Below are positions 35,584 through 36,699 of a stretch of 64,000 nt of DNA, one piece after another. The DNA is from Candidatus Heimdallarchaeum aukensis (GTDB taxonomy: Archaea; Asgardarchaeota; Heimdallarchaeia; Heimdallarchaeales; Heimdallarchaeaceae), in assembly GCA_021513695.1 (NCBI GenBank), contig CP084166.1:1376001-1440000 (forward strand). The letters are read 5' to 3'. The notes under the pieces were generated by a model. It had not been told where the DNA came from. It saw only the letters and a list, made by a program, of their open reading frames with translations, and did no database searches. The translations under genes and the position numbers were made by a program. Numbering within the stretch: the stretch's first letter is position 1; each line of letters begins with the position of its first letter.

Positions 35584-36699
35584 ATGACATCTGTACAAAA
35601 AATAAGTTGGAGCAAGGAAGAAATAAAATTAGTTGCCGACTATTTAGTCAAAATAGCTAATCAGTCTGAAGAACGCAAAATGGAAATCCCAATCGAGAGC
35701 GAAACACTAAAACATGAAAAAGTTGTTGAAGAAGCCAAAATGGGTATTGCAGAAGCATTAATTACAAATGAAATTAATGAAGAAGCTTTAGTGGAAGATC
35801 AAAAAATAAAAGAGATAATGGAATTTTCTCAGATTCCACAGCCCAAAACTGTAAAAAGGATAGAAGAAAAAATACCAGAAGAGAAGATAGATGTTATTGA
35901 AGAGAAGAGATTAGAGTTTGAAGAAGATAAAACAGGCATTGGAGAAATGGGAGAAATTGGTTTTGAAGAAATGGGAGAAATTGGTTTTGAAAAAAGAACA
36001 ATAGAAGGAGAAATTGTACAAGAACCGATTGTAGAGGAAAAAGTAGAAGAACCGATTGTAGAGGAAAAAGTAGAAGAACCGATTGTAGAGGAAAAAGTAG
36101 AAACAGATATTTTTTCACTAGCTAAAGAGATAGGCAAAGCATTAACAGAAACAGAAACAACAGAAGACATATCAATTGTTCAGAAAATAGAAACAGAGGA
36201 TTTGTCCGCTGAAGTTGTTACAGAACCAATTTTAGACAAACCCGTTGAAATAAAACCAGAAGACTTTCCAGAGGATATAAGAGATATAGTTCTAGAAGAA
36301 ATACCAGCTAAACCAGAAAAAGTAGAAATAACTCAAGAAGTGAAAGAAGAAATACCAGCTAAACCAGAAAAAGTAGAAATAACTCAAGAAGTGAAAGAAG
36401 AAATACCAGCTAAACCAGAAAAAGTAGAAATAACTCAAGAAGTGAAAGAAGAAATACCAGCTAAACCAGAAGAACTACTCACTGAGGAACAAATTAGAGC
36501 GAAAAAACGAGAAGAAATTATTCAGAAAATGCTTGCAGAGACAAGAAAGAGAGAACAGGAAGCTGGTGTTAAAGTATATAATATGGGAGAAACAGCTGGA
36601 AAGAAATATTCTGCTGTAATTATTGGTCAAGAATCATCAAAAAACATTAAAACTTGGAAAAAGGTAAGTAAGAAGAAAAAGAAGAAAAAGAAGAAATAG
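35584..36699 (+). CDS. Highly acidic Glu-rich tandem-repeat protein with a poly-Lys C-terminal tail
   Basis: 371 aa. It contains MGEIGFEE x2, (E)PIVEEKVE x3 and EIPAKPEKVEITQEVKE x3.5. It ends in KKKKKKKKK. Confidence 0.5.
   Translation: MTSVQKISWSKEEIKLVADYLVKIANQSEERKMEIPIESETLKHEKVVEEAKMGIAEALITNEINEEALVEDQKIKEIMEFSQIPQPKTVKRIEEKIPEEKIDVIEEKRLEFEEDKTGIGEMGEIGFEEMGEIGFEKRTIEGEIVQEPIVEEKVEEPIVEEKVEEPIVEEKVETDIFSLAKEIGKALTETETTEDISIVQKIETEDLSAEVVTEPILDKPVEIKPEDFPEDIRDIVLEEIPAKPEKVEITQEVKEEIPAKPEKVEITQEVKEEIPAKPEKVEITQEVKEEIPAKPEELLTEEQIRAKKREEIIQKMLAETRKREQEAGVKVYNMGETAGKKYSAVIIGQESSKNIKTWKKVSKKKKKKKKK
35947..35994 (+). repeat. 24-bp direct tandem repeat x2 (23/24 identical), in-frame coding (MGEIGFEE)
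   Basis: atgggagaaattggttttgaagaa / atgggagaaattggttttgaaaaa. Confidence 0.8.
36022..36102 (+). repeat. 27-bp perfect tandem repeat x3, in-frame coding (EPIVEEKVE)
   Basis: gaaccgattgtagaggaaaaagtagaa repeated three times without mismatch. Confidence 0.85.
36295..36471 (+). repeat. 51-bp perfect tandem repeat x3 plus a partial 4th copy, in-frame coding (EEIPAKPEKVEITQEVK)
   Basis: gaagaaataccagctaaaccagaaaaagtagaaataactcaagaagtgaaa x3. The 4th copy diverges after 24 nt. Confidence 0.85.

Follow-up and report, generated by a model that had tools for sequence, protein, structure and literature searches.

A family of acidic Heimdallarchaeial proteins with repeat-built spacers, encoded beside longin/Roadblock genes

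We analyzed a stretch of 64,000 nucleotides (the window) from Candidatus Heimdallarchaeum aukensis (assembly GCA_021513695.1, contig CP084166.1, positions 1,376,001 to 1,440,000 of the forward strand). The window is archaeal and AT-rich, with about 30% GC, and coordinates below are counted from its first letter. At positions 35584..36699 on the plus strand lies a gene that starts with ATG and encodes an acidic, repeat-containing protein of 371 amino acids, whose orthologues, with conserved modules, are found in the genomes of 25 species. This protein is a member of a real, conserved family confined to Heimdall-group Asgard archaea. Its spacers evolve through gain and loss of in-frame tandem units that keep charge and rough length but not sequence. 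The gene is persistently followed by a gene for a protein with longin and Roadblock domains. We hold this evolutionary and structural description with high confidence; the proposal that the protein tethers the products of its neighbors is more tentative and is weighed below.

A possible ribosome-binding site (GAGG, 35573-35576) lies 7 nucleotides 5' of the start codon at 35584. The protein begins with MTSVQK, contains no cysteine, has a net charge of -32 and a pI of 4.7, and is composed of 22.9% Glu and 14.8% Lys. Its charge is split, in that approximately 300 N-terminal residues are acidic and the last 50 or so are basic, ending in nine lysines. The preliminary description of this locus, which was made from the DNA sequence, had depicted a Glu-rich product with precisely this terminus, and the composition bears this out. 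The lysines are encoded by three copies of AAGAAGAAA (36670..36696, plus strand), as found both by a scan for perfect runs and by Tandem Repeats Finder (TRF). Because AAG and AAA codons alternate in the tail, runs of A do not exceed five bases. The coding strand of the gene is 70% purine, with an AT skew of up to 0.48, a bias that may promote slippage or non-B DNA.

Tandem arrays were detected by scanning the whole window directly for maximal perfect periodic runs with a period of 15 to 60 nucleotides and at least two copies. Three arrays were found, all in this gene and on its coding strand: a 24-bp unit encoding EMGEIGFE in 2.04 copies (49 nucleotides, 35943..35991), a 27-bp unit encoding EPIVEEKVE in 3.07 copies (83 nucleotides, 36020..36102) and a 51-bp unit encoding EEIPAKPEKVEITQEVK in 3.49 copies (178 nucleotides, 36294..36471). 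Every unit length is a multiple of 3, and all units are in frame. TRF concurs with the run scan (its score of 98% for the 27-bp array reflects only a different phasing of the unit), and the earlier claim that the three blocks are identical at the nucleotide level is thus confirmed. Outside these arrays, the scan found no further perfect tandem of this kind in the window, and TRF at a score of at least 80 found nothing more. When the codons of the gene were shuffled, one of 1,000 versions yielded any such perfect run. Arrays make up 337 of the 1,116 nucleotides of coding sequence (30%), and the remainder is nonrepeat sequence that includes the conserved modules, so to call the protein "made of" repeats was an overstatement.

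The distribution of the family was established by several searches. The single sequence retrieved four relatives, and a word-indexed profile search retrieved 18, all from metagenome-assembled genomes (MAGs) of Heimdallarchaeota/Heimdallarchaeaceae and none with a Pfam domain. A 15-sequence family profile, run exhaustively with HMMER against 1.84 billion representative proteins at a cut-off of E<=1e-3, gave 24 matches, all in Heimdallarchaeota; each is a full-length member or a fragment, with no fusion to another domain among them. When one genome was scanned for each prokaryotic species, 25 loci emerged, which are labeled as Heimdallarchaeota, Promethearchaeati (Asgard) or unclassified archaeon, and the best of which belongs to Ca. 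Heimdallarchaeum endolithica PR6. No match was found for the whole protein in Pfam-A at E<=0.01, no meaningful match for its N- and C-terminal segments in Pfam up to E=10, nothing meaningful in NCBIfam, and no match to PDB sequences at E<=1 with the family profile. Our literature searches turned up no earlier account of the family. The main text of Wu et al. (2022) refers, without further detail, to "intragenic tandem repeats ig1-3" in the two Heimdallarchaeum genomes; the present gene may or may not be among these repeat loci.

In the family alignment (A3), a fixed architecture of modules is apparent at 30-40% identity. The protein begins with an amphipathic helix (amino acids 9-33; 35608..35682) in which W9, I14, A18, L21 and A25 are invariant (pattern W...I...A.YL...A), and which is a candidate partner-binding helix. 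A helical region follows (amino acids 37-87; 35692..35844) that contains a conserved "EEAxxGxAxA" element, the "GLAKA" helix (in fuller consensus "EEAxxGLAKA"), and that ends in "QIPxP"; additional invariant columns are G54, A56, A58, I84, P85 and P87. Variable acidic spacer A (amino acids 91-168; 35854..36087) carries the 24- and 27-bp arrays and has a column conservation of 0.07-0.2. The predicted helix at amino acids 168-200 (36085..36183) occurs only in Heimdallarchaeum-like orthologues and, compared with the other family members, is an insertion. It is followed by a middle motif (amino acids 203-239; 36190..36300) with the consensus "E.xDLSxxxVTEPxxDxxVxxKPExxPED", also summarized as "DLSxPIVTEP..KPE.IPED", which is a candidate short linear binding motif. 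Variable acidic spacer B (amino acids 241-296; 36294..36471) is formed by the 51-bp array; both spacers are rich in Glu, Pro, Val, Ile and Lys. The C-terminal module (36484..36696) consists of a helix (301-326), a beta-hairpin (330-346) with the consensus MGETxGxxYSAVxxGxES and a basic helix with the motif "N[VIL]KxW", in which W358 is invariant. The consensus of this end reads "RREEIIQQMLAE..RE...MGETxGRxYSAVxxGxES.KN.KKW", followed by a K/R-rich tail, and the window protein carries the corresponding signature (R..II..ML ... G.T.G..YSA..G.ES..N.K.W plus the K/R-rich tail). All of these modules are encoded on the plus strand.

A single-chain AlphaFold2 model was built from the family alignment. 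Its mean predicted local distance difference test score (pLDDT) is 57, and its predicted template modeling score (pTM) is 0.20. The confident parts are the helix at 11-33 (pLDDT of about 90), the helices at 37-82, the helix at 301-326 (also about 90), the hairpin at 330-346 and the basic helix at 352-370. The segments with a pLDDT below 50 (amino acids 91-168 and 241-296) coincide exactly with the regions of the 24/27-bp and 51-bp arrays. The suggestion that the protein is intrinsically disordered therefore agrees with the model as far as the repeat regions are concerned, which are predicted to lack fixed structure. The maximum Kyte-Doolittle hydropathy over 19 residues is 0.37 for the window protein and 0.5-1.0 for six orthologues, and the N-terminal 30 amino acids have a mean hydropathy of -0.35. 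There is no hydrophobic segment by this measure, and therefore no signal peptide or membrane span is indicated, as judged by hydropathy.

Comparison among strains and species reveals how the arrays change. The orthologue from genome L002 is 98.5% identical to the window gene at the nucleotide level. The closest named genome for this gene is the complete genome of strain PR6 (84.8% nucleotide identity in the gene), which was assembled from Nanopore reads (PMC8813620) and of which L001 is a close relative. The 27-bp array has 3 copies in the window, 5 in L002 (+54 nucleotides), 2.3 perfect copies in PR6 (L009) and 1 in L001. For the 51-bp array, the corresponding numbers are 3.5, about 2.5, 4.5 (98% match) and 2.5, and the 24-bp unit is present in single copy in L001 and L009. 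The copy-number variation between strains that had been anticipated is thus seen in both longer arrays. Copies of the 51-bp unit are identical inside each genome and differ at about 5 of 51 nucleotides between the window and the PR6/L001 lineage. This combination is the mark of concerted evolution or of recent expansions that occurred independently, in line with what had been surmised.

The same process has acted throughout the family. Of 17 distinct orthologous sequences, 13 carry near-perfect in-frame arrays of their own, with periods of 18, 24, 27, 36, 45 or 51 nucleotides, and these always lie inside the same two spacers. Their units are unrelated in sequence (QEAEIV, EPEVVVEQ, PEVVAE, VVIEESVVEEE, PEEEIKEEILE, ETIAVE and others), and the QEAEIV unit alone occurs in 2.7, 3.7, 4.6 and 6.7 copies across sister species. 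Net charge is nonetheless always negative (-13 to -71), and the last 30 residues carry a net charge of +11 to +13 in every member. Therefore, the spacers have been rebuilt repeatedly while charge, modules and tail were held, as expected if selection acts on the bulk properties of a spacer and not on its sequence. Units are most plausibly gained and lost by replication slippage or unequal recombination, and gain and loss under these constraints accounts for arrays that are young, perfect, lineage specific and variable in copy number.

Directly 3' of the repeat gene is a gene for a two-domain protein (36792..37868, plus strand). We assigned its domains, longin and Roadblock, which are joined by a disordered linker, by an AlphaFold-type model and Foldseek. 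The model, which was built with 32 homologues, has a pLDDT of 73. It predicts an N-terminal domain with the order beta-beta-alpha-beta-beta-beta-alpha, a disordered linker at 151-224 and a C-terminal domain with the order alpha-beta-beta-alpha-beta-beta-beta-alpha, which is that of the Roadblock/LC7 fold. Foldseek matches include LAMTOR2/p14, MglB, Roadblock3 of MK-D1, Rag C-terminal domains, FLCN and Mon1-Ccz1. Two paralogues lie downstream, identified by sequence paralogy and synteny. One (37895..38482, minus strand), the best conserved gene of the cluster, encodes 195 amino acids with a basic N-terminal tail and a Roadblock-like domain paralogous to the C-terminal domain of the neighbor, and the other (38560..39579, plus strand) encodes 339 amino acids with, by sequence, the layout of the two-domain protein. 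Because both are sequence paralogues of the modeled protein, the earlier proposal of a downstream triplet of Robl paralogues is supported, even though the C-terminal domains of these genes go unmatched by the Pfam Robl_LC7 profile at E<=10.

Together, these longin/Roadblock genes form a conserved cluster specific to the Heimdall group, which Pfam misses. In the N-terminal longin-like domain, both two-domain paralogue families share the invariant residues F69, R70 and Y73. The arginine fingers of longins of the FLCN/NPRL2 type, which belong to GTPase-activating proteins (GAPs), have been discussed for Heimdallarchaeia (PMC12290439), and the invariant Arg recalls them at the level of sequence. 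No GP motif is evident in the N-terminal longin-like domains.

Synteny was compared in more than 30 loci, and adjacency was scored where the flanking sequence sufficed. In every such locus, the repeat gene is followed on the same strand by the longin-Roadblock gene, with a gap of 44-153 nucleotides. The divergent pair of genes upstream of the repeat gene (33399..35359, minus strand), which encode a 345-amino acid unannotated protein and a JAB/MPN metalloprotease, is linked to it in most genomes but not all. Two loci are particularly informative. In L022, the block is rearranged, with AIRS and Bud32 inverted, and linkage is kept: the 195-amino acid paralogue, the repeat gene, the longin-Roadblock gene and the 345-amino acid gene form a co-oriented row. 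In L035, the flanks are entirely different, and none of the JAB gene, the 345-amino acid gene, AIRS and Bud32 lies in the neighborhood; the order of the repeat gene, the longin-Roadblock gene, a 214-amino acid gene, a 193-amino acid paralogue and a 351-amino acid paralogue is intact. The minimal conserved unit is therefore the repeat gene with the longin/Roadblock genes. The comparison with sister genomes that had been proposed as a check on the locus thus yielded both the copy-number differences given above and this conserved linkage.

Two further observations concern the cluster. Other Heimdall genomes have an extra gene of about 217 amino acids between the longin-Roadblock gene and the 193-amino acid paralogue (L004 10410-11066, L005 10278-10931, L007 10476-11138 and L035 6195-6839), with a faint zinc-ribbon signal at its C terminus. 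The window and the PR6 lineage are without it, and a gap of 26 nucleotides separates 37868 from 37895. In L022 (7009-8151), the linker of the longin-Roadblock protein contains a lineage-specific tandem repeat, three copies of SPSSIPQPAKP, so repeat-built spacers are not unique to the acidic protein within the cluster.

The explanation that we favor is that the acidic protein is a disordered tether or scaffold for the longin/Roadblock module. It would be a cytoplasmic, largely disordered, bipolar protein with short conserved elements parted by two acidic spacers. The conserved elements would dock on longin/Roadblock dimers encoded by the adjacent genes, and the Trp-containing polybasic tail would hold the assembly on an anionic surface, of which a membrane is the likeliest, with the acidic spacers perhaps acting as self-repelling entropic linkers of tunable length. 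Precedent exists for such docking, since Roadblock dimers take up a helix of an extended partner in LAMTOR1 and in the dynein intermediate chain (PMC10933270). The scaffold idea, already raised in the preliminary description, is compatible with the data. As an explanation of the whole, it is the best that we can offer, and we put its chance of being correct at slightly less than even; the partner and anchor roles in particular are tentative assignments that we would sooner expect to fail than to hold.

Several known systems resemble this protein in part. Borg extrachromosomal elements of Methanoperedens carry in-frame perfect tandem repeats (aaTRs) (PMC9879509). Like the arrays described here, these are archaeal, perfect at the nucleotide level, divisible by 3 in unit length, recent, independent in relatives and disorder-encoding. 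However, aaTRs are spread over a mobile element, whereas the present arrays belong to a single conserved gene on the chromosome of Heimdallarchaeia and recur in the same two spacers of its product, and no other gene of the window carries perfect arrays. LAMTOR1/p18 of Ragulator and Ego1/Meh1 of the EGO complex are extended, disordered proteins with short helices and a membrane-anchoring end that hold Roadblock-fold dimers (PMC10933270, PMC5680233, PMC5696360). The acidic protein is similarly disordered with short helices and a charged end, is genetically tied to Roadblock/longin genes and is encoded 8 kb from a Rag/Gtr1-like GTPase. LAMTOR1 wraps two Roadblock-fold dimers with its short helices, and the predicted disorder, the short helices and the adjacent Roadblock genes would be compatible with a similar arrangement here. 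Any such resemblance would be one of function, not ancestry, because there is no sequence homology. Moreover, LAMTOR1 and Ego1 are anchored through an N-terminal myristoyl/palmitoyl group, whereas the putative anchor here is a C-terminal polybasic tail. The lipidation signal of LAMTOR1 (Gly2, Cys3/4) is missing from a protein that starts with MTSVQK and has no cysteine, and the acidic protein, with its repeat spacers, greatly exceeds LAMTOR1 and Ego1 in length and acidity.

The dynein intermediate chain, a disordered chain that gives a helix to an LC7/Roadblock dimer (PMC10933270), may be another analog. It has no homology to the acidic protein and a different architecture. To our knowledge, there is no dynein in archaea. 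The spacers can be compared with the entropic spacers of the titin PEVK region and with the charged or Pro-rich linkers of the bacterial tethers ZipA and TonB. All are Pro/Glu/Val/Lys-rich, repeat-built, disordered spacers of variable length between binding modules; however, no homology is found (Pfam), and the acidic protein is cytoplasmic and without a transmembrane anchor. Polybasic tails target proteins to membranes in the hypervariable region of K-Ras4B and the effector domain of MARCKS. The terminal run of lysines, among which aromatic or hydrophobic residues are scattered, is like these, but it lacks a lipid modification motif, and its membrane binding is putative. RomR of Myxococcus xanthus, which has Pro-rich and Glu-rich disordered regions, is a scaffold partner of the polarity module formed by MglA and the Roadblock protein MglB. 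As a prokaryotic disordered scaffold that acts with a Roadblock protein and a small GTPase, it may be a functional parallel. RomR has an N-terminal receiver domain, whereas the acidic protein has none by Pfam and NCBIfam and has a polybasic tail instead. The context of RomR/RomX and MglB is described elsewhere (PMC9481161).

A number of results weigh against a tether for the longin/Roadblock module. Gene adjacency is the one line of evidence that points to the proposed partners, and it comes from broadly syntenic genomes. The Roadblock domain of the neighboring protein retains its C-terminal helix; therefore, a groove for LAMTOR1 of the kind offered by the truncated domains of LAMTOR4/5 is not obviously free. 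Pfam gives no LAMTOR1 match to the acidic protein, which also lacks a lipidation motif, and hhalign of A3 against human LAMTOR1 gave a probability of 0.3% and an E-value of 0.23. The sole aligned stretch, which is not significant, pairs amino acids 10-27 (DKKNITRFAQYLYNLAKE) with LAMTOR1 residues 128-145 (DLQQVSRIAAYAYSALSQ). The tail is extremely hydrophilic (mean hydrophobicity -0.5 to -1.0, hydrophobic moment 0.35-0.69), which makes the case for a membrane over RNA or DNA a weak one; RNA, DNA or an acidic protein would be an equally plausible ligand of the tail. In a Foldseek search of PDB with the model, nothing was significant, and the best matches, winged-helix and KH proteins at an E-value of 2.7, are treated as noise because the pTM is 0.2. 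The main rival is a protein associated with nucleic acid, chromatin or the ribosome and functionally unrelated to the longin/Roadblock genes. Its Lys/Arg-rich C-terminal module would bind RNA or DNA, and its acidic body would serve as a chaperone or mimic for histones or ribosomal proteins. The bipolar layout of acid and base, the very hydrophilic K/R/E-rich tail and the invariant Trp would fit such a role, as would the translation and tRNA genes in the wider region (arginyl-tRNA synthetase, KEOPS subunits and RNase P RNA) and the fact that the only fold matches of the C-terminal helix-hairpin-helix, all nonsignificant, are winged-helix or KH proteins. However, every fold match has an E-value above 2 and a probability of at most 0.16, Pfam and NCBIfam find no known nucleic-acid-binding domain, and L035 loses linkage to housekeeping genes while keeping that to longin/Roadblock genes. 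We consider this rival unlikely.

The remaining alternatives are less probable than this. The acidic protein might be a substrate or regulator of the divergent pair, for instance, a disordered hub to which phosphate groups or a ubiquitin-like protein are attached. The 345-amino acid and JAB genes are indeed divergent from it in most loci, and in L022 the 345-amino acid gene has moved yet adjoins the cluster on the same strand, but neither gene is near it in L035, and the assignment of a kinase lacks support from hidden Markov models (HMMs) or PDB sequences; we regard this as improbable. A contingency-type hypervariable gene, in which change of repeat number is itself the function (for example, in evasion of viruses or toxins), would account for copy numbers that vary among near-identical strains and for arrays that arose independently in many lineages. 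Conserved modules and a fixed chromosomal position point instead to a housekeeping role, and the product has no signal or transmembrane segment, so we give this idea little credence. On/off phase variation is rejected, because all units are multiples of 3. An association with the surface layer, as first suggested, or secretion would suit a tandem-repeat, Glu/Pro-rich make-up, which is frequent in cell-surface proteins. Yet, by hydropathy, neither the window protein nor the six orthologues show a signal peptide or transmembrane segment (19-residue maximum 0.37-1.0), the window protein contains no cysteine, and Pfam and NCBIfam find no surface-protein domains. With all this evidence contrary, a surface-layer protein is rejected, and we see hardly any chance for this class of explanation. 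We rate just as low an assembly artefact or a spurious open reading frame (ORF). Short-read assemblies do break at the arrays, but numerous independent assemblies contain the gene at full length. One of them is the Nanopore-based complete PR6 genome, which itself has the perfect 27-bp and 98%-matching 51-bp arrays (2.3 and 4.5 copies). A spurious ORF is ruled out by the modules conserved across the family.

The predicted trouble for assembly is nevertheless evident. The contig of L003 terminates within the array (3' end), L034 has a run of N (a scaffold gap, at about 4530-4640) inside its own array, P0012 is frameshifted within the 27-bp array, and in L002, where the 51-bp array is one unit shorter than in the window, a 5-nucleotide junction anomaly (880-900) breaks the frame. 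This damage to public MAG assemblies has left the annotated proteins P0001, P0003 and P0012 truncated or frameshifted. Because short-read assemblies fail at such arrays, the copy numbers given for the window may not be exact, and short-read MAGs are an unreliable guide to how many units this gene has and even to its reading frame.

By themselves, the repeats are an ordinary, if clean, case of a coding-region variable number tandem repeat, and their polymorphism is unsurprising. The value of the case is that the spacers of one protein have been rebuilt repeatedly while its charge, modules and gene position stayed fixed. In-frame perfect repeats are of a kind known from Borgs, found here in one chromosomal family; the persistent pairing with longin/Roadblock genes in the Heimdall group is the more notable part. 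The larger point is that an unannotated, Heimdall-specific disordered protein is lastingly coupled to a set of three or four longin/Roadblock proteins, whose folds build GTPase platforms in eukaryotes (Ragulator, GATOR1/FLCN, Mon1-Ccz1 and TRAPP). If the coupling is physical, the protein would be a candidate for platform organization, and perhaps membrane attachment, in the closest archaeal relatives of eukaryotes. At its most specific, this idea would make the protein the membrane-anchoring organizer of a longin/Roadblock complex that regulates a Rag/Arf-like GTPase, an independently evolved counterpart of LAMTOR1/Ego1 in which a polybasic tail replaces lipidation and the spacers set membrane distance or exclusion volume. 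We think that this full version is probably wrong and offer it as speculation.

Other genes of the window deserve brief mention. A 414-amino acid GTPase (44773..46017, minus strand; Gtr1/RagA E-value 7e-20, Arf E-value 8e-15), 8 kb downstream of the cluster, is a candidate client of the longin/Roadblock proteins. In the divergent pair, the JAMM/JAB assignment of the preliminary description is upheld for the gene at 33399-34250 (minus strand; Pfam JAB, E=7e-14). Its product ends in a hydrophobic stretch, LYSLFNILSAIIISVLWIVFALLK, which suggests, from sequence, a tail-anchored isopeptidase. The 345-amino acid protein (34322-35359, minus strand) is 55-60% identical across the group and has no Pfam, NCBIfam or PDB-sequence match, so the "kinase" label that it had been given finds no support from HMMs or PDB sequences. 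It does hold "GDFHQSNLM...IDPTFW", a stretch that may be akin to the catalytic loop and the DFG-like motif seen in atypical kinases. Genes related to KEOPS lie at several places around the cluster (31391-31927, 40683-41357 and 42667-43671), with Cgi121 and Kae1/TsaD assigned by synteny with L001 and the Bud32/RIO-type kinase by Pfam. The window also contains a tRNA-Arg(CCT) at 50072-50148 and the archaeal RNase P RNA at 63008-63322.

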